From an uncultured Candidatus Saccharibacteria bacterium (GTDB taxonomy: Bacteria; Patescibacteriota; Saccharimonadia; Saccharimonadales; UBA10212), in the NCBI GenBank assembly GCA_964460855.1, contig CAYWQH010000001.1, positions 123,868 to 187,867 of the forward strand: a DNA stretch of 64,000 nt, written 5' to 3'. Below are positions 1,430 to 45,097 of this stretch, in pieces. The notes below the pieces were generated by a model. That model searched no databases. It was not told the origin of the DNA and saw only the letters and a list, made by a program, of their open reading frames with translations. Position 1 is the first letter of the stretch. Every line of letters begins with the position of its first letter. The translations under genes and the position numbers were made by a program.

Positions 1430-2004
1430 CCGATAGCTACCGTAAAAGCTGGGATAAGCACGGCGCCAGCCCCAAAGCGTTGCAGTGGAATAGCTACAAA
1501 TCCATGGCTGTAAGGTACAAGGAACTTGTAGCCAGCCTACCGGTAGACGGACATACAGTTCTTGATGCCGGCTGCGGTATGGGCGATTTGCTGCCATTTC
1601 TTTATGCCAAATCCGATAATTTTGACTATACCGGCATGGACATTACACCGGAATTTATCGACATCGCTAAAAAACGCTACGACGGCCATAAGTTTGTGAC
1701 CGGCAACGTGTTTGGAGCAGAGCTAGACGAAAAATTTGATATAGTTATTTGCTGCGGCGCGCTAAACGCTTTTTCTGACAACTGGCTGGCCGAGCGGTCC
1801 GAAAAAATCGATAAATTATTCGAACTTTGCAATGTAGCCCTGGCCTTTAATATGGCCGGTAGTTTTGCGCCTAAAGAATCGACTAAAAAAATTACTTATG
1901 CCGACGCCGGCGAGATACTAAAATTCTGCCTTACTTTGACGCCTAAAGTAGTTATTAAAAGCAACTATTCTTCGATAGATTTCACGGTAACTTTATACCG
2001 CTAA
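1426..2004 (+). CDS. Class I SAM-dependent methyltransferase
   Basis: VLDAGCGMGDL is a glycine-rich SAM motif I, followed by an acidic residue and a DIVICCGAL motif. The start was moved to the ATG at 1426, which overlaps the upstream stop (translational coupling). Confidence 0.8.
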   Translation: MTDSYRKSWDKHGASPKALQWNSYKSMAVRYKELVASLPVDGHTVLDAGCGMGDLLPFLYAKSDNFDYTGMDITPEFIDIAKKRYDGHKFVTGNVFGAELDEKFDIVICCGALNAFSDNWLAERSEKIDKLFELCNVALAFNMAGSFAPKESTKKITYADAGEILKFCLTLTPKVVIKSNYSSIDFTVTLYR

Positions 2005-2005
2005 G

Positions 2006-2122
2006 CTATTTATTGGCGCTGGATACCCGCCAATAGGCTAAACCGACCACGGCGACCACTATAAATAGCAATAGCACTATCATAGTTATAAAACCTTGGG
2101 CGTTAGGCTTACGCTTAGTCAT
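2006..2122 (-). CDS. Possible 38-aa small membrane protein (MTKRKPNAQGFITMIVLLLFIVVAVVGLAYWRVSSANK)
   Basis: Hand-translated ORF below the track cutoff. It has a basic N-terminus plus one hydrophobic helix. The SD is weak. Confidence 0.3.
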   Translation of the reverse strand: MTKRKPNAQGFITMIVLLLFIVVAVVGLAYWRVSSANK

Positions 2123-2163
2123 TAATTCCATTATGCTACGGCCGTAGCAAAAATCAACTGCTT

Positions 2164-3285
2164 CTATCCAAAAATTCCGCGTTTGCCGCTGCTTTTGCCG
2201 AAACTTTCGAGAAGTTCCTGCTGTTCGCGGCTAAGTTTGGTGGGCGTATCGACTAAAACCGTAACAATATGGGCGCCCCGGCCGCTGCCTTTAATGTGCG
2301 GCACGCCGTGGCCGGATAGCTTAAAGTCGGTACCGCTTTGGGTGCCGGGCGGCACTTTCATGCGTACCGGTCCGTCTACGGTTTCTACTTCAATTTCGGT
2401 ACCCAAGGCGGCGTCTACCATGCCGATATGTTCGCTGCTTAAAATAAGTTCGCCCTCGCGGGTGAATTTTTTATGGGGCTTGACCCGGAGGTTTACGTAT
2501 AAATCGCCGCGCGGGCCATTAGCTACGGCTTCGCCGTTTTCGCGCAGTCGAATGGTGGCGCCGTCGTCTATGCCGGCCGGTACTTTAAGCGTGATTTTTT
2601 CGCTTTTGCGCTGGGTGCCTTTGCCTTTGCAGACCGTGCAGACTTTTTCTGGGATCTGGCCGCGGCCATTACAGGTCGGGCAAATACTGGCTTGTTGGAT
2701 GTTACCGAAAATAGTTTTGGTAACGTTTACTACTTGGCCGCTGCCTTTGCAGGTGCCGCACTCTTTAAGCTCATAACCCGGCTCAACTGTAGAACCTTTG
2801 CAGTGTTCGCATTCGACATCAAGGTTTAAGTTTAGCTCTACTTCCGTGCCGAAAACGGCTTGCTCGAAGGTAAGTTCCACCATCGTTTCGACGTCCCGGC
2901 CGCGGGCCTGGCGCTGGCCGTTGCGGCCGCGGGCGCCGCCGCCGAAATCGCCGCCAAAAAAGCTGCCGAAAATATCACCTAAGCCCAGGTCGCCAAAGTC
3001 AAAATGAAATTCCTGGCCGTTGCCGGCACCGCCAAAACCCGAGAACGGATTGCCGTCGCTGGCGGCGCTGCTGCCCACCCCGGCATGGCCGAATTGGTCG
3101 TAGCGCTGGCGTTTGCTGGGCTCTTTTAATACTTCGTAGGCTTCGTTAACTTCTTTAAACTTCTCTTCGTCGCCGCCGCGGTCCGGATGGTGCTGCACGG
3201 CTAAGCGGCGGTAGGCTTTTTTAAGCTCATCCGCCGAGGCAGTTTTACCCACACCCAAAACTTCGTAATAATCACGCTTAGCCAT
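2164..3285 (-). CDS. dnaJ: Chaperone DnaJ (Hsp40)
   Basis: J-domain with HPD ([12 protein letters not shown]...HHPDR), a G/F-rich region and four CxxCxGxG zinc-finger repeats. Confidence 0.97.
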
Positions 3286-3289
3286 TCGA

Positions 3290-4144
3290 CTAACCTACTC
3301 CATTTTCTTTATCTATTGTAACCTGTACCATTTGCTTGGCTGCCAATCGCGGCGGCATTTCCTGGGAGGGGCCTTTTCTGCCTTGCAGCATTTCCGTAAA
3401 AAAATACAAGTTTTCTTTGCCTTCCACGTCATACGTATTAAAGGCGCGGCGGCTGTCCCATAATACAAATAAGAACCAGAGTAAGTCGTCGTATTCCGTG
3501 AACATCTGTTCCTGCGTCTGAAGCTTTGCTTTATCATTTTCGTGCAGCATTTTGTCGCGGGGGCGTACCCAGCTGGAAACCGAAAAATTCATGGTCGTTG
3601 GCCAGTGCCGGACAACTATACGTTCTTTGTTTTTTTGCACCATTTCAAAAATATTCAACGGGCGGGGAGAAGCTAATGAGGCGATACCGATAATGTGGTT
3701 ATCGCTGTAATAACCCTCCTGAATTCTGGCGTCGAAGCCCTCTACGAAAATCCGCTTACGTTTTTCACCCCTGCCGCTTACTATGGTTTCCGTGGGAACA
3801 TAGCGATAATCAAGTTCGCCGGGCTCCGGCTCGCGGGTCCTTGGCGCTCTGGTTCTTATACGTTTTGGCCAGTCTGATTTTTTGGCGGAATACGGAACTA
3901 ACGCCTTTAGGAAAAACGCGTCCAGGTGGCTTGATTCTATTTCGGGCAGGGTGAAATGCAAAGTATTAAACCTGATCATTTCAGGCTTGTATAACTCTGC
4001 CCGGCTTAATGGCGTAGGGGTCCGGTTCCGTTCGAAACCTTTACGCTTTTTCTTTACTTCCTCGATAGCGTTTATAAAGCTAAACTGGCCGTCTAGCTCA
4101 ACTATCTCTAATTCCGGTGCCGGTAATGGTTCTCTTTCGGTCAT
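3290..4144 (-). CDS. Hypothetical protein (284 aa) inside the dnaK-dnaJ interval
   Basis: Long ORF tightly packed, 4 nt from the dnaJ start. No motif recognised. Confidence 0.6.
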
Positions 4145-4159
4145 AATACTAGTTTTAGA

Positions 4160-4501
4160 TTAACGGGCGGCTTGGACCTTGCCCTTGTCCAGTTCCATTC
4201 CCAGCCACTTTTGGGCGCTTCTAGCGGTTTTCACTACCGGCACAGCCTCTAATAAGAACGCCCGGTAACTATGTACTTTTTTAACTTCTTTTTCTACGGC
4301 ATCGAAAAGGTCTACACGGCTGGACATACACATCATTACTTCATTATGCGTTTCTATGCTACCTAGCATAAGGTAATCGGTTTTTACGGCGAACTGTTTT
4401 GCGCAGCCAATTAATTTAGCTTCCAATAAGATGTTGGCAATAGTCTCGGCTTCTGCCTGGTCGGCACACGTTAGCCAAATTTGACAAAATTGTTGCGACA
4501 A
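4160..4501 (-). CDS. cutA: CutA-like divalent-cation tolerance protein
   Basis: 113 aa. It aligns by eye along E. coli CutA (IWLTCADQAEAETIANILLEAKLIGCA ... EVMMCMSS ... HSYRAFLLEAVPV ... KWL). Confidence 0.6.
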   Translation of the reverse strand: MSQQFCQIWLTCADQAEAETIANILLEAKLIGCAKQFAVKTDYLMLGSIETHNEVMMCMSSRVDLFDAVEKEVKKVHSYRAFLLEAVPVVKTARSAQKWLGMELDKGKVQAAR

Positions 4502-4542
4502 AAGCCGACCTCCTCATGCATTCTATTTTAATATATTTGCCG

Positions 4543-5025
4543 CTAGTTTTCTGGCGCTTTCTGAAAACTTAATCCAAGTTGGTTTTGCACTTTGGCAAAT
4601 GCAAATGCTTGTAACAGCGGTCCGATTTGGCCAATATTATGGTGGTTGGCAACTTCCGTTTCAGAAATTAAAGTCCGCTGGCCTGTCTTATCGTCAACTT
4701 TATAGCGGCGCTCCAAATATTTTACTTCGCCTGTATCAGTCCATATAAATTCGGGATGCAATGCTATGCCAGTAGCTTTATATGGCACGTTTACTAGTTC
4801 GATAGAATTAACGCTTTCCGCATCAGAACCAGCAATATGACGGGTTAAAACCATAATGTTAACAGGTTCATTGTATGAGTGCCAGGCTATTAGCAAATTG
4901 GCGCCATTTACATGCTCGCCGTCAAATATTTGGCTTATTTTTTTGCCCCAATTTTTTAATTCAAGCTGGTCGGCTTTTTTGGGCGGGCTGGATAAGACTT
5001 CTGGCCTTTCTCTTTGGACGCTCAT
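4543..5025 (-). CDS. Hypothetical protein (160 aa)
   Basis: The ORF overlaps the upstream RHH gene by 4 nt. No motif recognised. Confidence 0.55.
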   Translation of the reverse strand: MSVQRERPEVLSSPPKKADQLELKNWGKKISQIFDGEHVNGANLLIAWHSYNEPVNIMVLTRHIAGSDAESVNSIELVNVPYKATGIALHPEFIWTDTGEVKYLERRYKVDDKTGQRTLISETEVANHHNIGQIGPLLQAFAFAKVQNQLGLSFQKAPEN

Positions 5026-5294
5026 GGTTGGTCGCTTTCAAATTTATTGGCTTCCGATATTTGTTCTGTAACTGTAGTAAATATTTGCCTTGTGCCTTTT
5101 TCCGGTCCCTCTATTAACACCACTTCGCCGTCCAAGATGGCATTTATGAAATAAGTGTACGAGTCTAAAGCGTCTGTAATTACTTCTGATCTTGTGCGGC
5201 CGGTAACTTCGGAAAGTCTTTCCAGCTGTTGGACAGATTCGCGATGAAGATAATGCGTCAACTTAATATGATTTTCCGGACTATACTCAGACAT
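5022..5294 (-). CDS. Ribbon-helix-helix (CopG/Arc-like) DNA-binding protein
   Basis: IKLTHYLHRESVQQLERLSEVTGRTRSEVITDAL follows the beta-strand / helix / helix RHH pattern. 90 aa. Confidence 0.6.
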   Translation of the reverse strand: MSEYSPENHIKLTHYLHRESVQQLERLSEVTGRTRSEVITDALDSYTYFINAILDGEVVLIEGPEKGTRQIFTTVTEQISEANKFESDQP

Positions 5295-5305
5295 TTTGCT
5301 AAATT

Positions 5306-7222
5306 TTACTCTGTTTTCTTGTCATCTACTACTTCGCCTTCGATTGGCTCGTCGCCTTTTTTATCGACAGTTTCAGCTCCGCCCTCGGCAGATTCGCCCT
5401 CGGCCGGCTTTTCGTCTTTTTGGGCGGCCTCATACATTTTGGCGCCAATCGGCATAATCTTGTCACTCAGGGTTTTGGCGGCAGCTTCGAGCTTGTCTTT
5501 GTCGGTTTCTTCCAAGGATTTCTTGGCTTCTTCGGCGGCGTCTTTAAGGGTTTTAGCATCTTCTTCGCTGAGCTTGTCTTTGTAATCGCCGGCCATTTTT
5601 TCGGCCTGGTAAATCGAATTCTCCAGGATGTTTTTAGCTTCGGCGGCTTCGCGCTTTTTCTTGTCTTCTTCGGAGTGGGCTTCGGCTTCTTTGGCGGCCT
5701 TTTCTACTTCGGCTTTGTCGAGGTTGCCACTGCCCTGGATGGTGATGCTTTGCTCTTTGCCGGTGCCTTTGTCTTTGGCGGTTACATTTAAGATGCCGTT
5801 GGCATCGATATTAAAGCTGACTTCGATTTGCGGAACGCCGCGCGGAGCTGGTGGTATGCCATCTAAAACGAACCGGCCAAGGCTTTTATTGTCGGTGGCC
5901 ATTTCGCGCTCGCCCTGCAGCACGTGGATTTCCACACTGTTTTGGTTATCGGCTGCGGTGCTGAAAACTTCGCTCTTACTGGTAGGGATGGTGGTGTTGC
6001 GTTCGATTAACTTGGTAGTAACGGCGCCTAATGTTTCGATGCCCAGGCTCAATGGAGTAACGTCCAGCAAAAGCACGTCTTTGACGTCGCCTTGCAACAC
6101 GCCGCCCTGGATGGCCGCGCCGACAGCTACTACTTCGTCGGGGTTCACGCCCTGCTTGGGGTCTTTACCGAAAATGGATTTTACTTTTTCCATTACGGCC
6201 GGCATGCGGGTCATGCCGCCAACTAAAATGACTTCGTTAATGGCGCTGGAATCCAGGCCGGCGTCTTTCAAAGCTTTGCGGCAAGGATCTTCGGTTTTAT
6301 CTATCAGGTCGCCGACCAGTTCTATTAACTTGGCGCGGGTAAGTTTGTATTCGAAGTGCTTGGGGCCATCGGCATCGGCCGTCAAAAACGGCAGGTTAAT
6401 GTCGGCGACTTCGGTAGTGCTAAGTTCTTTTTTGGCTTTTTCGGCTTCTTCTTTTAGCCGCTGCATGGCGGCTTTGTCTTCTTTAACGTCTATGCCGCTG
6501 TCTTTTTTGAACTCCTCTACGAAGTGGTTAACGATGCGCATGTCGAAGTCTTCGCCGCCCAAGTGGGTGTCGCCGTTAGTGGACAATACTTCAAACACGC
6601 CATCGCCTAGTTGCAATATGGATACGTCGAAAGTTCCGCCGCCGAGGTCAAACACGGCGATTTTTTCTTCTTTGCCTTTGTCTAAACCGTAAGCCAGTGC
6701 GGCCGCCGTAGGCTCGTTGATGATGCGCTTAACTTCCAAACCGGCGATTTTACCGGCGTCTTTGGTAGCCTGGCGCTGCGAATCATCAAAGTATGCCGGC
6801 ACGGTAATGACCGCTTCGGTAACCGGCTCGCCTAAGAAAGCTTCGGCGTCGGCCTTTAGCTTGGACAGTATCATGGCGCTGACTTCTTCGGGGCTGTACT
6901 CTTTGCCGGCCATTTCGACTTTAACGCCAGTGCCGCTTTTGACGATTTTATAAGGCATCAGTTCGATGTCTTTTTGGACTTCGGCATCGGAAAACTTGCG
7001 GCCGATTAGGCGCTTAACGCCAAAAATAGTATTAGTTGGGTTGGTAACCCTCTGGCGGTTGGCTACCTGGCCTACCAGCCGTTCGTTATTCTTATTTATA
7101 GCTACGACACTCGGCGTGGTGCGGTTGCCTTCGCTGTTGGCGATAATTTCCGGTTTGCCGGCTTGCATGACGGCCATCGCCGAGTTGGTTGTTCCTAAGT
7201 CTATTCCTATAATTTTTCCCAT
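5306..7222 (-). CDS. dnaK: Chaperone DnaK (Hsp70)
   Basis: [17 protein letters not shown] and [11 protein letters not shown] signatures. 638 aa. Confidence 0.98.
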
Positions 7223-7236
7223 GATTTTTCTCCTTT

Positions 7237-7506
7237 TTAAGCGCTTGGCGGTTCCGGGAATTCCGGATGCTCAATTTCTTCCTTATACATATCAAAAAAC
7301 TTCAATTTTTCTTCGTCGGATAATGCGTCTATCTCCTGTTGAAGCCGCCGCATATCTGCTTGGTTAGCCTCAGTATTGCTTTCAGGCGAGGCAGCCTTTG
7401 TGTCTACATCAATGGCCCGGTTTACCAGACCTAAAAGATATTTTTCATTGGCCACTTTTTCTACAAATCGATCGCGAAATTCGCTTAAATTTATTACATC
7501 GCCCAT
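7237..7506 (-). CDS. Hypothetical acidic protein (89 aa) between grpE and dnaK
   Basis: ORF coupled to the upstream ORF by a TAATG overlap at 7506. Confidence 0.5.
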
Positions 7507-7748
7507 TACTTTTTCTCCTTGGCCGGAGCGGCATCCTGCTCGGCAGCCTGGTTTTCGGCTAAGAATTTAGCCCTGGCTTTATGGCCGATAGCTTTGGCTA
7601 CCTGGTTAGGATATTTGCCGTACAAACCGGCTTGAAATAAGCGGTCGGCTTCGGCCAGGTTTTTAGGCAAACCGTTAATTAGCGTTCCGTCGTCGAACCG
7701 GAACTGGACATTGTCCAGATAAGATATGGTTTTAACTGATTCGTTCAT
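7506..7748 (-). CDS. Hypothetical protein (80 aa) between grpE and dnaK
   Basis: ORF coupled to the grpE stop by a TAATG overlap at 7748. Confidence 0.5.
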   Translation of the reverse strand: MNESVKTISYLDNVQFRFDDGTLINGLPKNLAEADRLFQAGLYGKYPNQVAKAIGHKARAKFLAENQAAEQDAAPAKEKK

Positions 7749-8215
7749 TACTGATTCTCCAATTTAACCCGTACCATGGCATGGCGGATAACTTCGTCGC
7801 CGATCTTATAGCCGGGTTGCAGCTCTTCGCTGACAATTTCGGTTGAGCCGCCATTGTCCTCAACACCAACCGCTTCGTGCAGCCGCGGGTCGAAAACTTC
7901 GCCGACTGTTTTAATCCGCTCGATGCCCAGCTCTGTTAAGGCTTTGTCGAATTGTTTAATAACTCCATGTACGCCCTTTACGTAATCGTGCTCGGCCAAA
8001 TCGCCGGGAGCGTGTTTTAGGGCGCGCTCTAAGTTATCAAAGGCCGGCAGCATTTCGCGGACAACCATGGCCTTGTAGAACTCGGCCAGATGGGCGCGAT
8101 CTTCTTCGGCCCGGCGGCGGACGTTGATGGCGTCGGCCCGTTCACGCTGCAAAGCGTCGGTCAGTTCGCCGATTTGCTGCTCTAAATCTTTTAAGTTTGG
8201 TTTTTTACTGCTCAT
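7748..8215 (-). CDS. grpE: Nucleotide exchange factor GrpE
   Basis: Coiled-coil N-terminus, LLPAFDNLERAL and FDPRLHEAV motifs, and operon context. Confidence 0.93.
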   Translation of the reverse strand: MSSKKPNLKDLEQQIGELTDALQRERADAINVRRRAEEDRAHLAEFYKAMVVREMLPAFDNLERALKHAPGDLAEHDYVKGVHGVIKQFDKALTELGIERIKTVGEVFDPRLHEAVGVEDNGGSTEIVSEELQPGYKIGDEVIRHAMVRVKLENQ

Positions 8216-8275
8216 CCTTATTTTTTCCAGTTAGAACTTTAAATAGATCGCGCAGCCAATATATGAAATCGACAA

Positions 8276-8986
8276 TCATACGTAAAGCACCTCTTCCAGG
8301 TTCTTGCCGGCAGTTTCGACCAGGCTCATCACTTGGCGGTAACTTTGCCGGGTGGGGCCCAGCACTCCAATGTAACTTTGGTCGGAATACGGGCTGCGGA
8401 ACCGGCTGATTATTAAACTACAACCGGAGTTGCGTCCAATGGGGTTTTCGCTGCCGATATAAACGCTGAGCGGTTCGTTGGGGGCGGCTTCGCGCAGCCA
8501 CGGCTCTAAATTGTCCAGGAGCCTCGCAACTTCCTGGACCTGGCCGGGATGAATGAATTCCGGCTGGCCGAACAAGTTGGACAAGCCGCTCATATATAAC
8601 TGGTTGCCGATAGTCGCCATGCCCAAGTTGTGGGTCAGTTCGACTAAGGTATCAACCGCATTGCGGATGGTCCGTTCCGGCATACCGCCATCGGCGACCC
8701 GGGTTTGCAGGGCTTTTTCGGCCCTAGGCACGTTAAGCACTTTTTGGGCTTTGCCGGACGACATATTATTAACGTAAAACCGGTAGCCTTTATCGGTAGG
8801 GATACGGCCGGCACTGGTGTGCGGCTGGCTGATAAAGCCGCCGCGTTCCAACTCGGCCATTTCGGCGCGGACGGTGGCGCTGCTGACATCAAAAACTTTA
8901 GCCAGCAAACTGCTGCCTACCGGGCTGGCGACTTCGGCGTATTGCTCGACGATCGCCTCTAGAATTTTGGCCTGTCGGTCTGTCAT
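8276..8986 (-). CDS. hrcA: Heat-inducible transcription repressor HrcA (short form, 236 aa)
   Basis: N-terminal wHTH (RQAKILEAIVEQYAEVASPVGSSLLA...SSATVRAEMAELE..GFI.QPHTSAGRIPT.KGYRFYV). CIRCE operators lie upstream. Confidence 0.9.
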   Translation of the reverse strand: MTDRQAKILEAIVEQYAEVASPVGSSLLAKVFDVSSATVRAEMAELERGGFISQPHTSAGRIPTDKGYRFYVNNMSSGKAQKVLNVPRAEKALQTRVADGGMPERTIRNAVDTLVELTHNLGMATIGNQLYMSGLSNLFGQPEFIHPGQVQEVARLLDNLEPWLREAAPNEPLSVYIGSENPIGRNSGCSLIISRFRSPYSDQSYIGVLGPTRQSYRQVMSLVETAGKNLEEVLYV

Positions 8987-8997
8987 TAACTACCTAT

Positions 8998-9024
8998 TTA
9001 GCACTCGCTAGTGCTTAATGCTAG
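8998..9024 (-). promoter_or_regulatory. CIRCE operator 1 (cTAGCAtTa-N9-GAGTGCTAA on the minus strand)
   Basis: The right half matches the CIRCE consensus GAGTGCTAA perfectly and the left half matches 6/9. It sits at the predicted +1 / 5' UTR of hrcA. Confidence 0.7.
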
Positions 9025-9052
9025 TTTACCGAAATTGGCACTCTCATGTCAA
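9023..9052 (-). promoter_or_regulatory. hrcA operon promoter (TTGACA-N18-TAAACT)
   Basis: A perfect -35 TTGACA (9047-9052) lies inside the spacer of CIRCE 2. The -10 TAAACT (9023-9028) abuts CIRCE 1. Confidence 0.55.
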
Positions 9053-9061
9053 CAGTGCCAG
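9035..9061 (-). promoter_or_regulatory. CIRCE operator 2, variant (CTGGCACTG-N9-GAGTGCCAA on the minus strand)
   Basis: Inverted repeat with the canonical 9-nt spacer. Relative to TTAGCACTC-N9-GAGTGCTAA the halves match 6/9 and 8/9. Confidence 0.6.
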
Positions 9062-9064
9062 TCG

Positions 9065-9253
9065 CCACATACTCACCCAAGACATTCGAAAACATTATTG
9101 AATTTGCTGTATGTTTATTAGCCGCGCAGCGACAATCCCACTTTAGTGGGACTCCCACCCTTTAATTAAGATTGTGCGGGAGCGAGTCGCTGCTTTATTC
9201 GGCGGCCAATTAGCAAATTCATCAGTTTTCCCGAGTCTTGTGCGAGTATGTGG
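9065..9253. repeat. Long imperfect hairpin element E1 (189 nt; about 44-nt arms plus branched GC-rich core)
   Basis: The arms 9065-9108 and 9212-9253 pair (ccacatactc/gagtatgtgg, caagac/gtcttg, gaaaac/gttttc, gaatttgct/agcaaattc). Inner helices are gccgc/gcggc, gcagcgac/gtcgctgc and cccac/gtggg. The arms resemble those of 18764-18938. Confidence 0.6.
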
Positions 9254-9397
9254 TTCCATCTATATAACTAAAAGTTCACTATTTTCACACTCCGCTTTAC
9301 CGCATAGATTTTAAGCTAACCGGCAGTAAAGTTCATAAACGCAAGCCGAAAATTGTAGCGACCATCGAGCAAATTTTATTACTGATAATAATGGGTG

Positions 9398-9433
9398 CGG
9401 GCTGGGAGGGAGCTCGCGCTCACCTCCCGCCCG
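9398..9433 (-). terminator. GC-rich hairpin terminator of the 179-aa cassette gene
   Basis: cgggc(t)gggagg pairs with cctcccgcccg, with an inner gagc/gctc helix. It lies 7 nt after the TGA stop and is followed by an A/T-rich tract. Confidence 0.55.
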
Positions 9434-9439
9434 TTGTCG

Positions 9440-9979
9440 TCAGTTTCGCTCGCTGGTGGACTGGCGCGAAGCCACCAGCCGGTCCATGGCCTCCTCGTGG
9501 TTCTTGGCCATGCCCGTCTCAGTTGCAAGACGGATGTGGTTGATGCGAGCAGCGTCTTGCTGCTGCAGCAGGAACTCCGTTTCGTCGGCGCGCGTGGGAA
9601 ATTCCTTGGAATTCTCCATCAGCCAAGCCTCAAGCTCTTCGTCCAGAGTGTCCCGCCCAGCATCGAGTATGGCCACACTGTGGTACACGCCATGACCGGC
9701 GATGACCAGCACCCTGATGCCGCGCAGGGCGGCGTACAGGATGCGGGCCCGCCGCATTGGCAGACCCGGAATGTCCGGATCAACCGCCCACTCGGCATAG
9801 CGCAAGAAGTTGTCGAGGCGGTCAGTTGGACGGACGCCCAGAGCCTCGATCCCGTTGAAGAACCTCGTGAGGGAATCGATATAGCGCCGGCAGTCCCTGA
9901 TGAAGTTCTTCGGCTCTACTCTGTAGAGCTGCAGGACTTCCAGGTCCCGGTGATCCTCGAACTGTGCCTTATTGGTCAA
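9440..9979 (-). CDS. Hypothetical protein (179 aa), compositionally foreign GC3-rich cassette gene
   Basis: TTG start 6 nt after AAGGAG. All Lys codons are AAG and GAG/CTG/TTC/CGC dominate, whereas dnaK is AAA/GAA-rich. No motif recognised. Confidence 0.65.
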   Translation of the reverse strand: MTNKAQFEDHRDLEVLQLYRVEPKNFIRDCRRYIDSLTRFFNGIEALGVRPTDRLDNFLRYAEWAVDPDIPGLPMRRARILYAALRGIRVLVIAGHGVYHSVAILDAGRDTLDEELEAWLMENSKEFPTRADETEFLLQQQDAARINHIRLATETGMAKNHEEAMDRLVASRQSTSERN

Positions 9980-10019
9980 CGAACGCTCCTTGTTCAGAAG
10001 GGTTGAAAACGACTAATAT

Positions 10020-11331: not shown

Positions 11332-11844
11332 ATGGCAGCTTCTCGCAGGGCTCGGCATAAGAAAAAACATCATTTAAAAGATAACGCCTTCAAAATAGAG
11401 GTAATGGTTGCTTTTGCCGTTGTTTTCGCCCTTGTAGGCGGCTTGGTATGGCATGGCAGCCGGGCCGCTTCGCTGCACTGCGTGGACCAGACTTTTAGCG
11501 AAGGTTCCAGCGGCCAATGCGTAAAAGATATCCAATCTATGCTCAATTATAAGATTTACTACACAGCCTCTTCCAGCTATATACCAATGGACGGAGCGTT
11601 TAGCTCGATTACCAAATCTAGGGTTTCGACGTTTCAAAATGACGTAAAGCACGGCAAACATTATCCCCAAGGCGCTGAAATTCAAAATTGGCAGTACCTG
11701 CATGCTATTAACGTGACGGGTACGGTTAACCCCCAAACCTGGGCCCAGTTATGCCTGCCAACCGGCACCGATAACACTAACGAAGCTAAAATTTCCGCCA
11801 ACCAGTTATATAACAAAGCCGCCAAAGAGGCAGGCTGCGAATAG
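11332..11844 (+). CDS. Membrane-anchored protein with a peptidoglycan-binding-like domain
   Basis: Basic N-terminus plus a TM helix. GQCVKDIQSMLN...DGAFSSITKSRVSTFQ...GTVNPQTWAQL resembles the PG_binding_1 repeat. Confidence 0.55.
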   Translation: MAASRRARHKKKHHLKDNAFKIEVMVAFAVVFALVGGLVWHGSRAASLHCVDQTFSEGSSGQCVKDIQSMLNYKIYYTASSSYIPMDGAFSSITKSRVSTFQNDVKHGKHYPQGAEIQNWQYLHAINVTGTVNPQTWAQLCLPTGTDNTNEAKISANQLYNKAAKEAGCE

Positions 11845-11858
11845 ACAGGAGAACTACC

Positions 11859-12425
11859 ATGGCCACCGCCAAAACTTCAAAAAAACTTAATAAAATGGCT
11901 TTCCCGGCAGGGTTTAGTCTTAAATCGAACCGCAGCAAAATGATACTTTTCGCCTTGGTATTCGCCGTTATCGGCGGTGTTTATTACTTATATTCCACTC
12001 ATGCAGCTTCTATATCCAGTAAAAGCCGGATCGTGATTTTAGATTACGGAACGGTAGAAGGAATCGGTACCCAGCCTAAGCTCGTTAGCAATTCTAACGA
12101 CATTTGGGGAATTCCGTCTGTCAGCAACCAGGCTAACGGCCAGACGCCAATATTTACCTATATAAACCCCACCGGCACGGCTACCTGGTTGACGTTCGGT
12201 AAAACCGCTTTCAAACGGGCCTGTTTTATCGTTAACGTGGCGCCAAGTAAGACAGCCGTTAACACAACTTTTAAATTAAATACCGGCTACGCTACGGCAC
12301 AAGACACATTAGCGCCGTCCAACTACTTTACCAGGGAGTGCATTGATGCCAGCGCTTATAACCCATCGGTTACCGTAATTAGCGGTTCAGCCCTCCGCGT
12401 TTACCACATAGAACTGTATCTCTAG
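11859..12425 (+). CDS. Membrane-anchored or secreted hypothetical protein
   Basis: N-terminal TM/signal anchor. No motif recognised. Confidence 0.55.
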   Translation: MATAKTSKKLNKMAFPAGFSLKSNRSKMILFALVFAVIGGVYYLYSTHAASISSKSRIVILDYGTVEGIGTQPKLVSNSNDIWGIPSVSNQANGQTPIFTYINPTGTATWLTFGKTAFKRACFIVNVAPSKTAVNTTFKLNTGYATAQDTLAPSNYFTRECIDASAYNPSVTVISGSALRVYHIELYL

Positions 12426-15906: not shown

Positions 15907-16662
15907 CTAGGCGGCTTGCTGTTCGACCGGTTTTATCGAGATGACGTGGTCGACGCCAGGTTCGGTCCCATTTTTGTGGCGTTCTTCTGCCTTTTTAGCG
16001 AAGTTCATCCGGGAATTATTTTCTAACTGCTCAATATTTTTATAAACGTAAACGGCCCCTCCAAGTACCAGCGCGCCAACCGCCGCGCCAACGGTTCCGC
16101 GGGCTAATGAGTTGTCTACAACTTCAGAGCCAGTTTCTGTGCTAAAGCCAAGCGCTTCGCCAAAAAATACGCCAATACCTAAAGCTGCGATTTGCAGCCG
16201 TCCCATTAATCTCTTATATTTTTCACGTCCGATTGCTTCGTTAATTCCTTGGCGCAACCGCATATTCATATTGCCTTCGATAATATCGCTAAGTTCCATT
16301 AAGCTTTTATCAGGATTACTAGTGTGAAGCGGCGCCAGCACTTCAACAACATTGCCGGAAACTAGCGCAGGGCCGTTGTCGCGGGCGACAACATCCGGGC
16401 TTTCAATTAATGCCGGCAGGCTGGGAACCGGATTTACAAAAACTTCTTTGATCCTGTCGCTAGGCCTAATTGCTTCGTTGGCATTATAAACAGCAACTGC
16501 GAACTTTTCGTTATCAATCACAATTTTATGTTCTTCGTCGTTTATAAATAAGTCTGAATGCGGAAAATCTAAACTGGCCGTGGGCGCTAAAATTGGGGTT
16601 GTTGAGCGCTTTACAACCTTGTCCTTAATCTCTTGAAACTCGGTAAATCCTTCTGCTGACAT
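15907..16662 (-). CDS. Hypothetical protein with C-terminal TM helices
   Basis: The start was moved to the ATG at 16662 (SD GAAGAGGG). This is supported by the upstream promoter TTGAAT-N17-TATACT at 16690-16718. Confidence 0.5.
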   Translation of the reverse strand: MSAEGFTEFQEIKDKVVKRSTTPILAPTASLDFPHSDLFINDEEHKIVIDNEKFAVAVYNANEAIRPSDRIKEVFVNPVPSLPALIESPDVVARDNGPALVSGNVVEVLAPLHTSNPDKSLMELSDIIEGNMNMRLRQGINEAIGREKYKRLMGRLQIAALGIGVFFGEALGFSTETGSEVVDNSLARGTVGAAVGALVLGGAVYVYKNIEQLENNSRMNFAKKAEERHKNGTEPGVDHVISIKPVEQQAA

Positions 16663-16689
16663 AGTACCCTCTTCAATATTAATGGAATT

Positions 16690-16718
16690 AGTATAGTCCT
16701 CTGAAGTGCCCGATTCAA
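16690..16718 (-). promoter_or_regulatory. Promoter TTGAAT-N17-TATACT for 15907..16662
   Basis: Hexamers read on the minus strand with 17-nt spacing. Confidence 0.45.
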
Positions 16719-16735
16719 TCAATTGTGATTCTGAA

Positions 16736-16764
16736 TTGCCGCTTATGCACCGAGCTGTTATCAT
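16736..16764 (+). promoter_or_regulatory. Extended -10 promoter (TTGCCG-N17-TGtTATCAT) of the 85-aa cassette gene
   Basis: Hexamers, 17-nt spacing and the TG motif were read directly. Confidence 0.45.
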
Positions 16765-16817
16765 AAAAACTTCGCATTTTTTGCGTAGCGTTTGGCAAGA
16801 CAAACAACTGAAAGGGG

Positions 16818-17075
16818 GTGGCCGCCCTGGCTACCTACATTATTTCAGTCGGTGAAGAAGTGACCCTGGAATTCCACATCCACGACAACGACACGGCGAT
16901 CGACCATGTCACAGAGTTGGCGTCACTGTGGGAAAAACGCACTGAAACCTGGGGCAAGCTGTTCGCCGGCCGGAAGAAGTACCCGTTGATGCTGCTTCGC
17001 CGGGAAAGAGACCGGTCCTTCGAGCATGTGATCACATGCACGGTAAACCTCTCTGGCCCCGGCGACTACAACTAG
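16818..17075 (+). CDS. Hypothetical small protein (85 aa), GC3-rich cassette gene
   Basis: GTG start directly after the purine tract GAAAGGGG. Codon usage is GC3-biased. The ORF is bracketed by the 15-bp inverted repeat 16787-16801 / 17118-17132. Confidence 0.5.
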   Translation: MAALATYIISVGEEVTLEFHIHDNDTAIDHVTELASLWEKRTETWGKLFAGRKKYPLMLLRRERDRSFEHVITCTVNLSGPGDYN

Positions 17076-17081
17076 CGGCTT

Positions 17082-17137
17082 TGCGGGGCCGGGTCTTCGA
17101 ACCCGGCCCCGCAGCGCGTCTTGCCAAACGCTTTTTT
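17082..17137 (+). terminator. Tandem terminators: a 13-bp GC hairpin, then a short hairpin plus T6
   Basis: tgcggggccgggt-cttcga-acccggccccgca (17082-17113), followed by gcgt...acgc and TTTTTT (17132-17137). Confidence 0.65.
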
Positions 17138-17152
17138 CATTGGTCCATAAGA

Positions 17153-17181
17153 TTGCTACTTTATACTACTTATGTTATAAT
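17153..17181 (+). promoter_or_regulatory. Extended -10 promoter TTGCTA-N17-TGtTATAAT of the 76-aa cassette gene
   Basis: Near-consensus hexamers. 28/32 nt are identical to the promoter at 17508-17539. Confidence 0.6.
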
Positions 17182-17213
17182 ATTTTATTAGGCTACCCCA
17201 AAGGAGACGTCTG

Positions 17214-17444
17214 ATGGTAATGCAAACCTATCAGATCGACGACGGCCCGCTGTTCCAGCGGCCCAGCGAGTTTCTCGCCAAGGAGGTCTTCCGCCTCGCG
17301 GTGGAACACCGGCGCGACGAACTCAGCCAACTGCCGGACCCGCCGCGGACAACCCTGCTCACCCTCTACAGCTTCCACGAGCGTGGGCGCACGCAGATCG
17401 ACGACTACAAGATCGTCCTGCCAGGTGAGCCGGTAAAGGCGTAG
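17214..17444 (+). CDS. Hypothetical small protein (76 aa), GC3-rich cassette gene
   Basis: AAGGAG lies 7 nt before the ATG. About 64 of 76 codons end in G/C by hand inspection, and all Lys codons are AAG. Confidence 0.65.
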   Translation: MVMQTYQIDDGPLFQRPSEFLAKEVFRLAVEHRRDELSQLPDPPRTTLLTLYSFHERGRTQIDDYKIVLPGEPVKA

Positions 17445-17451
17445 CAATCCG

Positions 17452-17490
17452 GGGCCCCCTCCGCCACTTGGCGGACGGGGCCCTTCCCAT
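17452..17490 (+). terminator. 14-bp GC hairpin terminator
   Basis: gggccccctccgcc-actt-ggcggacggggccc, followed by ttcccattttt. Confidence 0.6.
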
Positions 17491-17508
17491 TTTTATGTGT
17501 CTATAGTA

Positions 17509-17537
17509 TTGCTATTTAATACTTCTTATGTTATAAT
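17509..17537 (+). promoter_or_regulatory. Extended -10 promoter TTGCTA-N17-TGtTATAAT of the 128-aa cassette gene
   Basis: Same module as 17153-17181. Confidence 0.6.
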
Positions 17538-17654
17538 AACTCTGATTTCACTTCGGTGGGGTCGTATTTTGACAGGGTTAAGCTTCTGCCGCGTCCAATG
17601 AGCGCATCTTAATAGATAAGGTGCACTGGTTGGACACGACAGAAAGGATCTACT

Positions 17655-18041
17655 ATGTCCAACGCTCAAGGCCAGCCCGTGACCTATTACGTGCAGGTCT
17701 ACGAGTTCTGCGAGCACCTGCACATGTCAGTAGTGCTGAAGGAAGCTCGGGGATTCGATTCCCTGCCCTTCCGCGACTACTTGAAGTGCGTCGTACCGGG
17801 TACTACGCTCAGCCATCATTTCACGGACCATGGCTTCCTCTCGATCGACATCGAGTGGCGCCAGGGGCTGAAGCTATCTGTTCGCGCGATCGAGTCAGTA
17901 CAAGGCGCGATCGACGACTTCTTCCGTGACAACGGCGGCGTGCGAGACCATCGCGCCGAGCGCATCGAAGCGCTGGAAGCGGCGATGCGGCCTCAGGAGC
18001 TGTGGCTCGTCGAGTGGCCGGAGTACGATCCGACCGTCTGA
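17655..18041 (+). CDS. Hypothetical protein (128 aa), GC3-rich cassette gene
   Basis: SD GAAAGGA lies 7 nt before the ATG. GC3-rich codons, with all Lys as AAG. A leader of about 110 nt precedes it. Confidence 0.65.
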   Translation: MSNAQGQPVTYYVQVYEFCEHLHMSVVLKEARGFDSLPFRDYLKCVVPGTTLSHHFTDHGFLSIDIEWRQGLKLSVRAIESVQGAIDDFFRDNGGVRDHRAERIEALEAAMRPQELWLVEWPEYDPTV

Positions 18042-18047
18042 CGTATA

Positions 18048-18079
18048 CGGCCGCCGGCCCCTTTGGGGGCTGGCGGCCG
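18048..18079 (+). terminator. 14-bp GC hairpin terminator
   Basis: cggccgccggcccc-tttg-ggggctggcggccg, 7 nt after the TGA stop. Confidence 0.55.
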
Positions 18080-18135
18080 CGCCTCACTTAACCCTGCCAA
18101 TCACATTTGTTATAAATCTTTTTAAAAGGACAAGC

Positions 18136-18165
18136 TTGCTTAATCCTAACTGCCCTTTATATTAA
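18136..18165 (+). promoter_or_regulatory. Promoter TTGCTT-N16/18-TATATT/TATTAA of the 167-aa gene; a second TGtTATAAA box lies at 18108-18116
   Basis: Hexamers read directly. Confidence 0.4.
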
Positions 18166-18184
18166 TTTACATAAAGGAGCGTTT

Positions 18185-18688
18185 ATGGAACGAGGACAGC
18201 ATCCTGAATATACTTTCAGAAGACACGAACATTTTGAATTCAATGATAAAAAAGTAGATAAGAAAAAAAGAAATTCTATTCAAAAGGCCGCAACAAAGTC
18301 TCACGATGATTTAATGGCCTACCGTAGCCAACTAAAAGAAATTACAAAAGAGCTGGAGAAGCAACTTGAGCATCTCCAAGGCAAAACGATTTCAGTGAAT
18401 AGCACAAGAGCAGTTTTACGTTATGGCGGCAACTATCGGCTGCTTACGATCTCAACTGATACAGTTGGTTCCACCAATGGAGTTTTGCTTGATTTAGCTT
18501 TATTTAATACTGCAGAATTACACCATCCAGACGATGAGGGTAGCTTTGAAAACGTATTCGAAATAGTCATGCGAATTCATACCAATCCGGACATAACAAG
18601 ACATAATCCGAACAATCTAAGCGTAGTTTATGTCCCGATCGACGACATCCAAGGCCCAATTACGTTAGTTAAAGACGGTAGTAGCTAG
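18185..18688 (+). CDS. Hypothetical protein (167 aa), AT-rich cassette gene
   Basis: AAGGAG lies 5 nt before the ATG. Arg is encoded mostly by AGA and Lys by AAA. One 60-nt line (18301) counts 23/60 G+C. No motif recognised. Confidence 0.6.
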   Translation: MERGQHPEYTFRRHEHFEFNDKKVDKKKRNSIQKAATKSHDDLMAYRSQLKEITKELEKQLEHLQGKTISVNSTRAVLRYGGNYRLLTISTDTVGSTNGVLLDLALFNTAELHHPDDEGSFENVFEIVMRIHTNPDITRHNPNNLSVVYVPIDDIQGPITLVKDGSS

Positions 18689-44956: not shown

Positions 44957-45097
44957 TAACTGGCGGCTCTTGCTCGAGAGACTTTACAACTGTTTCGGAC
45001 TTTAACCGTTGCGGCACAGCGTTAGAATTTCACTAACTTCCAGTTTGGTTTATTAAAGTGCTTTCATGATAGCACAAGCCATGACAAAATATTGGTT

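Follow-up and report, generated by a model that had tools for sequence, protein, structure and literature searches.

We analysed a 64,000-nucleotide (nt) stretch of the genome of an uncultured Candidatus Saccharibacteria bacterium (contig CAYWQH010000001.1, positions 123,868 to 187,867), called the window throughout and used here for all coordinates, in which the heat-shock genes hrcA, grpE, dnaK and dnaJ share one tightly packed cluster with six further genes. The cluster lies on the minus strand, is read from 9061 down to 2164 and contains, all in one orientation, hrcA, grpE, ORF80, ORF89, dnaK, ORF90, ORF160, cutA, ORF284 and dnaJ, where the number of an open reading frame (ORF) gives its length in amino acids (aa). 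Comparison with related loci from across the order Saccharimonadales leads us to regard the six extra genes as likely passengers in lineage-wide, fast-changing cargo slots of an operon under HrcA and its operator, the controlling inverted repeat of chaperone expression (CIRCE), and not new co-chaperones.

Anatomy of the hrcA-dnaJ cluster

The features of the cluster, in the order in which they are read, are as follows.

9035..9061, minus strand: CIRCE-like inverted repeat 1 (CTGGCACTG-TTGACATGA-GAGTGCCAA), with four mismatches to TTAGCACTC-N9-GAGTGCTAA and the -35 hexamer of the promoter inside its 9-nt spacer
9023..9052, minus strand: sigma-70-type promoter-like site 5' of hrcA, TTGACA-18 nt-TAAACT, 10/12 matches, the top-scoring site in 1900-9400
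8998..9024, minus strand: CIRCE-like inverted repeat 2, just 3' of the -10 hexamer, with three mismatches and a perfect GAGTGCTAA arm
8276..8986, minus strand: hrcA, 236 aa, the short form usual for the lineage (Pfam HrcA C-terminal domain 3e-19, HrcA_DNA-bdg 3e-5)
7748..8215, minus strand: grpE, 155 aa (Pfam GrpE 3e-39)
7506..7748, minus strand: ORF80, cargo of 80 aa with a 1-nt overlap between its start and the stop of grpE; no family; coding score 0.45
7237..7506, minus strand: ORF89, acidic cargo of 89 aa, overlapping the ORF80 stop by 1 nt; no family; coding score 0.34, GC content at third codon positions (GC3) 0.39
5306..7222, minus strand: dnaK, 638 aa, the translation being 75-89% identical to Saccharimonadales DnaK
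5022..5294, minus strand: ORF90, with a weak ribbon-helix-helix (RHH)-like N-terminus (residues 16-46), starting 11 nt past the dnaK stop; GC3 0.38
4543..5025, minus strand: ORF160, a soluble orphan with a 4-nt overlap (ATGA) between its start and the stop of ORF90; coding score 0.25, GC3 0.38
4160..4501, minus strand: cutA, 113 aa, CutA1 family, with a TTG start behind a GAGGAGG Shine-Dalgarno sequence (Pfam CutA1 5e-17)
3290..4144, minus strand: ORF284, a basic soluble orphan (isoelectric point 8.9), starting 15 nt past cutA and ending 4 nt before dnaJ; coding score 0.17
2164..3285, minus strand: dnaJ, 373 aa, with J domain, Zn-finger domain and C-terminal domain (Pfam DnaJ_C 6e-43, DnaJ 4e-24, DnaJ_CXXCXGXG 5e-15)

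The operon is closely packed, with overlaps of 1-4 nt or, around the inserted genes, gaps of 4-41 nt. From dnaK through dnaJ the spacings are, in turn, 11, -4, 41, 15 and 4 nt; grpE and ORF80 overlap by 1 nt, as do ORF80 and ORF89, and 14 nt separate the end of ORF89 from the dnaK start. At -4 to 41 nt, the junctions leave no space for separate regulatory elements; no stable RNA structure was predicted at any of them, and a search of 1900-9400 against Rfam returned no family of note. Re-reading the ORF list and the spacings bore out a preliminary description of this DNA, which had placed four co-oriented genes between dnaK and dnaJ, the 160-aa frame overlapping the 90-aa frame by 4 nt. Its account of how the operon is interrupted was correct for this interval and missed the second interruption, by ORF80 and ORF89, between grpE and dnaK.

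By gene order and the presence of CIRCE at the promoter, the scaffold is a genuine heat-shock operon of class I (HrcA/CIRCE). Like the class I operons of Bacillus subtilis and Clostridium, it has the four core genes in the same order on one strand with hrcA first, preceded by a sigma-70-type promoter and an inverted repeat of the TTAGCACTC-N9-GAGTGCTAA type, which is present here as two degenerate copies. It differs from them in its six extra genes at two internal junctions, in the placement of the two CIRCE-like copies around the promoter and in an HrcA that lacks ~100 residues relative to the usual form. In the canonical Firmicutes operon the four genes are contiguous and extra genes follow dnaJ, as do yqeT, yqeU and yqeV in B. 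subtilis; the two Firmicutes loci that we compared likewise have short junctions.

For comparison within the lineage we used 158 loci anchored on GrpE, comprising 78 genome and 80 metagenome loci, nearly all from Saccharimonadales/Saccharibacteria. The best GrpE identity to the window was 75-76%, a scan of metagenomes yielding nothing above 76%; the window accordingly belongs to a Saccharimonadales (TM7) genome for which close relatives are missing from the sequenced set. The window HrcA is 74-82% identical to most of its relatives over residues 1-235 and 51% identical to those of two loci (L019 and L028). The sandwiching of the hrcA promoter between two CIRCE-like repeats proved to be a general feature. 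Of 120 related loci, 119 have repeats with up to four mismatches within 200 nt 5' of hrcA, against a background of 16 matches in 671 kb of flanking DNA, and these repeats mostly form a tandem pair with TTGACA in the 9-nt spacer of the first copy, as in the window. When the window was shuffled 100 times, no repeat at up to three mismatches (the level of repeat 2) turned up, and no other CIRCE was found within 1900-9300 of the window at up to five mismatches. We found no description of this sandwiched-promoter layout in open-access papers and preprints.

The inserted frames carry a frame-specific coding signal. Positions 3290-5294 are covered to 97% by same-strand ORFs with a length of 80 aa or more, compared with a maximum of 42% in 2000 dinucleotide-preserving shuffles, and the longest ORF reaches 284 aa, compared with a maximum of 244 aa in the same shuffles. 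A codon model trained with 25 long ORFs from the rest of the window gives each of the six cargo ORFs a positive score in its own frame and negative scores in the remaining five. The scores of ORF90 (0.14) and ORF284 (0.17) fall under that of the lowest training gene (0.21). The GC3 of ORF89, ORF90 and ORF160 (0.38-0.39) is well below the genome mean of 0.57 and the 0.60 of dnaK/dnaJ, which suggests recent acquisition of these three genes.

The exact proteins are present on the 193-kb contig at NCBI and in the Logan assemblies of the runs SRR9179560 and SRR9179563, and Logan contigs from both runs span the dnaK-ORF90 and ORF284-dnaJ junctions at 100% identity. As both junctions occur in two further read-set assemblies, which may stem from the same or related samples as the NCBI assembly, the arrangement is not peculiar to the latter, and a misassembly confined to one assembly is excluded. 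The preliminary description had considered that the arrangement might be unique to this assembly; the Logan junctions, and the occupied slots found across relatives (see below), dispose of that concern.

Beyond the cluster, 3' of dnaJ, lies a perfect 14-nt palindrome, GCTACGGCCGTAGC (2148..2135, minus strand), without a subsequent T-run. It is followed by a co-oriented ORF of 41 aa (2131..2006, minus strand) with one strongly hydrophobic segment, MELMTKRKPNAQGFITMIVLLLFIVVAVVGLAYWRVSSANK, which loosely resembles a prepilin-type leader.

Two occupied junctions around dnaK across Saccharimonadales

Wherever related loci hold these genes, they follow the order hrcA-grpE-dnaK-dnaJ. The junctions on either side of dnaK are commonly occupied. 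The dnaK-dnaJ interval is longer than 300 nt in 46 of 56 genome loci and in 30 of 31 metagenome loci (median ~650 nt, maximum 2091 nt), and the grpE-dnaK interval in 49 of 72 genome loci and 44 of 69 metagenome loci (median ~370-440 nt). By a uniform measurement on this set of loci, 88% of dnaK-dnaJ and 64% of grpE-dnaK junctions exceed 300 nt, compared with 3% for hrcA-grpE, 25% for murJ-lepA, 29% for gmk-hrcA and 38% for lepA-gmk as control junctions. Of the gap ORFs with 60 aa or more, about 89% run in the direction of the operon. The synteny survey suggested in the preliminary description thus finds inserted genes at the same junctions to be the usual state, but not the same genes, CutA excepted.

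The content of the slots is highly heterogeneous. In an all-against-all BLASTP comparison, 150 of 218 gap ORFs (the six of the window counted in) were singletons, and the only sizeable families were CutA and a membrane-anchored protein of ~52 aa, both confined to the dnaK-dnaJ slot. Roughly 60 of the 80 dnaK-dnaJ cargo proteins have no Pfam family. Those that could be named with Pfam, NCBIfam and PADLOC include CutA (eight), VKOR (four), NYN nucleases (three) and SemiSWEET (two), together with single occurrences of an RhtB/LysE exporter, a GNAT and others; the NYN nucleases also match the HEC-09 candidate defence model of PADLOC. The 76 grpE-dnaK cargo proteins are essentially without family. 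The ~52-aa protein follows dnaK directly in nine loci (L003:12659-12814, L007:12611-12769, L011:12731-12892 and six more) and features an N-terminal hydrophobic helix, the motif GxKYAxxxYVxKDRKFI and a ratio of nonsynonymous to synonymous substitution rates (dN/dS) of 0.19-0.29. It is found in the clade of the window and absent from the 64-kb window itself. Since the nearest relatives by DnaK (88-89% identity) hold only this ~52-aa gene in the dnaK-dnaJ slot, the four-gene load of the window is a lineage-specific state.

Turnover of the cargo is rapid. Loci whose DnaK proteins are 92-98% identical share 10% of their dnaK-dnaJ cargo with the partner slot, and at identities of at least 98% this figure is 75%. 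Family-less cargo genes in closely related pairs have dN/dS values of 0.05-0.28, marking the cargo of the relatives as real genes under constraint. We found no description of such an arrangement in Saccharibacteria or Patescibacteria in open-access papers and preprints, and the pattern of two hyper-occupied, fast-turnover slots with co-oriented genes around dnaK in Saccharimonadales is apparently undescribed. By itself, the window adds a further example of this lineage-wide pattern, with three orphans.

In several respects the slots resemble the integration hotspots of pangenomes, with which they share fixed flanks, fast-replaced and mostly uncharacterised content, and an occupancy above that of neighbouring junctions. 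They differ in lying inside an essential, regulated operon, in usually holding one to four small co-oriented genes without room for a promoter, and in having no associated integrase, transposase, tRNA or flanking repeat. In the window, no meaningful direct or inverted repeats were found within 2000-9200, and the cluster contains no integrase or transposase. An integron-like cassette array or a mobile element was also considered and is ruled against by the lack of recombination sites, repeats, integrase and transposase; attC sites, as in an integron-like array, would in addition not fit into spacers of -4 to 41 nt.

A few further observations concern the surroundings of the slots. One relative (L034:10460-15275) has a 4.8-kb grpE-dnaK insertion with three paralogous ORFs (391-445 aa), of which two run with the operon and one against it, and with a CIRCE pair of its own ~370 nt before dnaK. 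Upstream of the cluster in the window, the murJ-lepA-gmk-hrcA backbone is also interspersed with genes that lack counterparts in relatives (9395-10006, plus strand; 11332-12425, plus strand; 15907-18688), among them a 203-aa ORF without a Pfam family that is divergent from hrcA. Lineage-specific gene insertion is thus general in this region, only rarer at the backbone junctions than at those of dnaK. Elsewhere in the window, an AdoCbl-II (cobalamin) riboswitch aptamer at 44981-45059 (minus strand) scores 49.4 bits against a gathering score of 36.5, a notable find in the reduced genome of an episymbiont.

Identity of the cargo proteins

Five of the six cargo proteins resist assignment. ORF160, ORF284, ORF80 and ORF89 have no match in Pfam, NCBIfam, PHROGs or PADLOC. 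For ORF90, ORF160 and ORF284 no solved relative was found among PDB sequences, and each of the three retrieves itself alone from 5.8 billion protein clusters, as does ORF284 in a full phmmer search against 1.84 billion representatives. ORF284 and ORF160 also match nothing in IMG/VR viral contigs, nor in GenBank phages or PLSDB plasmids (tblastn). None of the five has a homologue in any of the 158 related dnaK loci, which together with the family libraries made up the searches for ORF80 and ORF89, and the inserted genes have no paralogues elsewhere in the 64-kb window. We also considered that the orphans might be diverged or frameshifted versions of the cargo of relatives. Neither phmmer --max against 212 gap ORFs nor tblastn of all gap ORFs against the six frames of the window matched anything but CutA, and a gap-ORF match near 7829-7638 from two loci (L003 and L007) arises from over-extended ORF calls that overlap the conserved 3' end of grpE. 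The orphans could derive by transfer from unsampled donors or by de novo birth. All six cargo proteins appear soluble, with no hydrophobic segment of membrane-spanning length.

For ORF90, which the preliminary description had called an RHH protein, the profile matches amount to a hint. The Pfam RHH_1 match (E 0.0027, 18.1 bits) lies under the cut-off of 20.5, as do further RHH-type matches to an NCBIfam RelB-like model (0.012) and to PHROG regulators (0.005-0.009) under theirs. These hints are mutually consistent in that all fall at residues 16-46, leaving a tail of ~45 residues after the RHH-like part.

Structure prediction, proposed earlier for the 284-aa and 160-aa proteins, had to be carried out with single-sequence AlphaFold2, the sole option for orphans without homologues, and gave unusable models with predicted local distance difference test (pLDDT) scores of 30 for ORF284 and 44 for ORF160. 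The top Foldseek matches of the ORF160 model were Hsp70 substrate-binding domains. We rejected them on account of E values of 0.04-0.5, template modelling (TM) scores of ~0.15, root-mean-square deviations of ~16 Å and the pLDDT of 44; BLASTP against the window DnaK found nothing in the substrate-binding domain, which leaves an Hsp70-like ORF160 without support, and the signal is treated as probable noise and kept as a lead only. More generally, no J domain, GrpE-like domain, nucleotide-exchange factor (NEF) or other chaperone-associated domain was detected in the inserted proteins with Pfam and NCBIfam at E values up to 1, and BLASTP of these proteins against DnaK gave nothing significant.

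CutA is the exception, and the earlier naming of this gene as CutA-like stands on firm ground. The Pfam PF03091 match scores 61.9 bits against a cut-off of 22.4 and aligns residues 8-100 with profile positions 3-96 of 99, and solved CutA1 chains match over the full length with E values down to 2e-11. As the protein falls below the NCBIfam equivalog cut-off (NF041095; 53.8 bits against 120), it is best described as a divergent member of the CutA1 fold family, an assignment that is solid for the family, and not as a confirmed functional equivalent. CutA1 is a divalent-cation tolerance protein, encoded in E. coli at the cutA-dsbD/dipZ locus. The 113-aa protein of the window resembles it in its full-length match to the Pfam family and to solved CutA1 trimers, and differs from it in its divergence and in its location in a dnaK operon. 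In 21 related loci spread over the order, the dnaK operon holds a homologue with 40-52% identity, which makes cutA the only cargo gene of the window that is common to relatives. In every one of the 21 loci where dnaJ could be placed, the gene lies between dnaK and dnaJ, at varying positions inside the slot, and in L065 it is the sole occupant, with spacers of 15 nt and 6 nt. We found no report of CutA in dnaK operons in open-access papers and preprints. The recurrent dnaK-cutA-dnaJ arrangement is a new context for CutA1, a family of still unclear function.

Expression and role of the cargo

The reading that we favour draws on direct observations, namely the anatomy and coding signal of the cluster, the CIRCE/promoter layout, and the occupancy, co-orientation, heterogeneity, turnover and purifying selection seen in relatives. 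The grpE-dnaK and dnaK-dnaJ junctions would serve as cargo slots for co-oriented, packed, mostly lineage-specific and rapidly replaced genes, the window holding ORF80 and ORF89 in the former and ORF90, ORF160, cutA and ORF284 in the latter. All ten genes would be transcribed from one promoter 5' of hrcA and, as this promoter sits between two CIRCE operators, we propose that HrcA represses the cargo and that this repression is lifted together with that of the chaperones. Translation would be handed on via the 1-4 nt overlaps and the very short spacers. The cargo proteins would then ride a strong stress-responsive transcript without being dedicated parts of the DnaK machine, CutA as a probable long-standing resident of the slot across the order and the other five as putative species-specific orphans, with replacement presumably occurring by recombination through the conserved dnaK, dnaJ and grpE flanks. 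Passive co-expression under HrcA/CIRCE thus appears to be the best reading of the layout, and we infer that the cargo genes are passengers and not partners. Where the preliminary description had proposed heat-shock co-regulation under CIRCE, the sequence supports that proposal through the promoter, its two CIRCEs, their counterparts in relatives and the absence of any other CIRCE from the cluster; heat induction itself is a prediction from this layout.

A number of points weigh against this reading. Both CIRCE copies of the window are degenerate, and co-transcription and heat induction of the cargo are predicted from spacing and motifs. Relatives do not always follow a single-promoter plan: 47 of 141 have a second CIRCE in the grpE-dnaK gap, mostly as a tandem pair enclosing TTGACA (e.g., L010:10317-10390 and L024:10318-10391) and in some cases ~300 nt 5' of dnaK, leaving a small cargo ORF between operator and dnaK, and 11 of 87 have a CIRCE in the dnaK-dnaJ gap, in nine of them 13-31 nt before the dnaJ start (e.g., L063:13711-13737). 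These extra operators at dnaK or dnaJ mean that the cluster is not always one unit in the order. The closest clade of the window, like the window itself, has no CIRCE in either gap. Saccharibacterial promoters are, moreover, poorly known. Our hairpin-plus-T-run scan agrees with the earlier statement that no terminator lies between dnaK and dnaJ, an observation of low weight: terminator-like hairpins occur in the 330 nt 3' of dnaJ in only 19% of related loci and are no denser there than inside genes, so that, with the positive control not enriched, their absence is nearly uninformative on co-transcription, and intrinsic terminators seem a poor guide to operon ends in Saccharimonadales. No donor was found for the low-GC3 genes ORF89, ORF90 and ORF160. 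Finally, passenger status is argued from missing conservation, and a single cargo protein may still contact DnaK or DnaJ.

Some of these points feed an alternative that we regard as unlikely, in which the cargo is expressed from unrecognised internal promoters and the dnaK-dnaJ adjacency is a permissive insertion site, uninformative on heat-shock regulation. Weak 9/12 promoter-like matches do occur on the minus strand inside ORF160 (4862..4834 and 4664..4636), cutA (4440..4413) and ORF284 (3962..3934), the 41-nt spacer before cutA is AT-rich with TATATT, TAAAAT and TAGAAT strings, and the CIRCE-bearing promoters 5' of dnaK and the CIRCEs at dnaJ in some relatives indicate that sub-operonic units exist. 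Promoter-like sites in the cluster are, however, not enriched (12 compared with 7.7 +/- 2.6 expected from shuffles), and none of the internal ones comes close to the hrcA promoter, with its 10/12 matches and perfect -35 hexamer. Four of the five junctions are overlaps or spacers of 4-15 nt and offer no space for a promoter outside coding sequence, and the ~89% co-orientation of cargo across the order is what read-through expression would lead one to expect.

A bolder version of the slot idea, which we also hold to be improbable at present, is that the junctions flanking dnaK are a selected 'docking site' or gene nursery for captured or newborn genes. Orphans arriving there would gain strong stress-coupled expression beside chaperones that buffer poorly folding young proteins, and ORF90, ORF160 and ORF284 would be very young genes caught at that stage.

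The suggestion in the preliminary description that the inserted genes form a selfish module narrows to the ORF90/ORF160 pair, for which it is possible on architecture and atypical composition. On this view, which strikes us as doubtful, the two genes are a toxin-antitoxin-like pair of type II (or another kind of addiction or defence pair) that inserted behind dnaK and is kept there by addiction and not by a benefit tied to the chaperones, with ORF90 as an RHH antitoxin and repressor and ORF160 as a toxin of a new family. As in type II systems with an RHH antitoxin of the RelB, ParD or CopG type, a small gene for a DNA-binding-like protein comes first and overlaps the second by 4 nt; several independent weak RHH matches converge on residues 16-46, one of them to a RelB-family antitoxin model, and the tail of ~45 residues that follows is antitoxin-like. 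The GC3 of 0.38 in both genes fits a recent foreign origin, and the slot of relatives holds the NYN nucleases with their HEC-09 match and a GNAT. The pair differs from such systems in that every RHH match is under its curated threshold and no solved RHH protein matches ORF90, that ORF160 matches no toxin and nothing in PADLOC, PHROG, Pfam, NCBIfam or PDB, and that neither gene has a homologue in the collections searched, which is unusual for mobile modules. With just 11 nt between the end of dnaK and the start of ORF90, and no promoter-like site immediately 5' of it, an autoregulated promoter of the pair's own is not evident. Flanking repeats, mobility genes and a second copy were likewise not found.

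The proposal that the inserted proteins are novel co-chaperones or clients is not supported. In its fuller form, ORF284, ORF160 and CutA would be lineage-specific modulators or obligate clients of DnaK/DnaJ whose dosage tracks that of the chaperone, which we judge to be distinctly improbable. The genes do sit exactly between dnaK and dnaJ with translational coupling, the recurrence of CutA in this position and its sole occupancy in L065 fit such a role, and VKOR, a disulfide-forming enzyme present in the slot of four loci, hints at a protein-folding theme; the Hsp70 substrate-binding domains among the Foldseek matches of ORF160 would point the same way, had they not been rejected as poor matches from an unusable model with nothing in the corresponding domain of the window DnaK to back them. 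Set against this, ORF160 and ORF284, and ORF90 with them, occur in none of the 158 related dnaK operons, the large protein collections searched yielded no homologue of any of the three, and no J domain, NEF or chaperone-related family was matched. The slot in relatives is moreover filled with unrelated proteins, including VKOR, the SemiSWEET and RhtB/LysE transporters, NYN nucleases and a GNAT acetyltransferase. A co-chaperone or client role is thinkable for CutA alone, as its presence in the slot is recurrent.

That the orphan ORFs are not genes, and the interval a non-coding or decaying spacer kept open by chance, is very unlikely given the coding scores, the dN/dS of relatives and the shuffle test: the orphans' lack of homologues in any collection searched, the low-confidence single-sequence structure predictions and the ORF90 and ORF284 scores below the lowest of the 25 long window ORFs would fit it, whereas a 284-aa ORF and 97% same-strand coverage never arose in 2000 shuffles, every ORF is positive in its own frame alone, the ATGA overlap and the Shine-Dalgarno sequence before cutA point to organised translation, and purifying selection acts on similar family-less cargo in relatives.

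Saccharibacteria, which live as ultrasmall episymbionts, have reduced genomes in which few regulators can be recognised. If most members of the order do keep fast-changing, lineage-specific genes within the HrcA/CIRCE chaperone operon, a large part of their 'dark' accessory proteome would be predicted to be switched on under proteotoxic or host-contact stress, and this link would provide a concrete condition under which to seek the function of the cargo proteins. The slots would also constitute a natural repeated experiment on the tolerance of an operon to insertions, with dozens of independent cargo sets placed between the same two genes.

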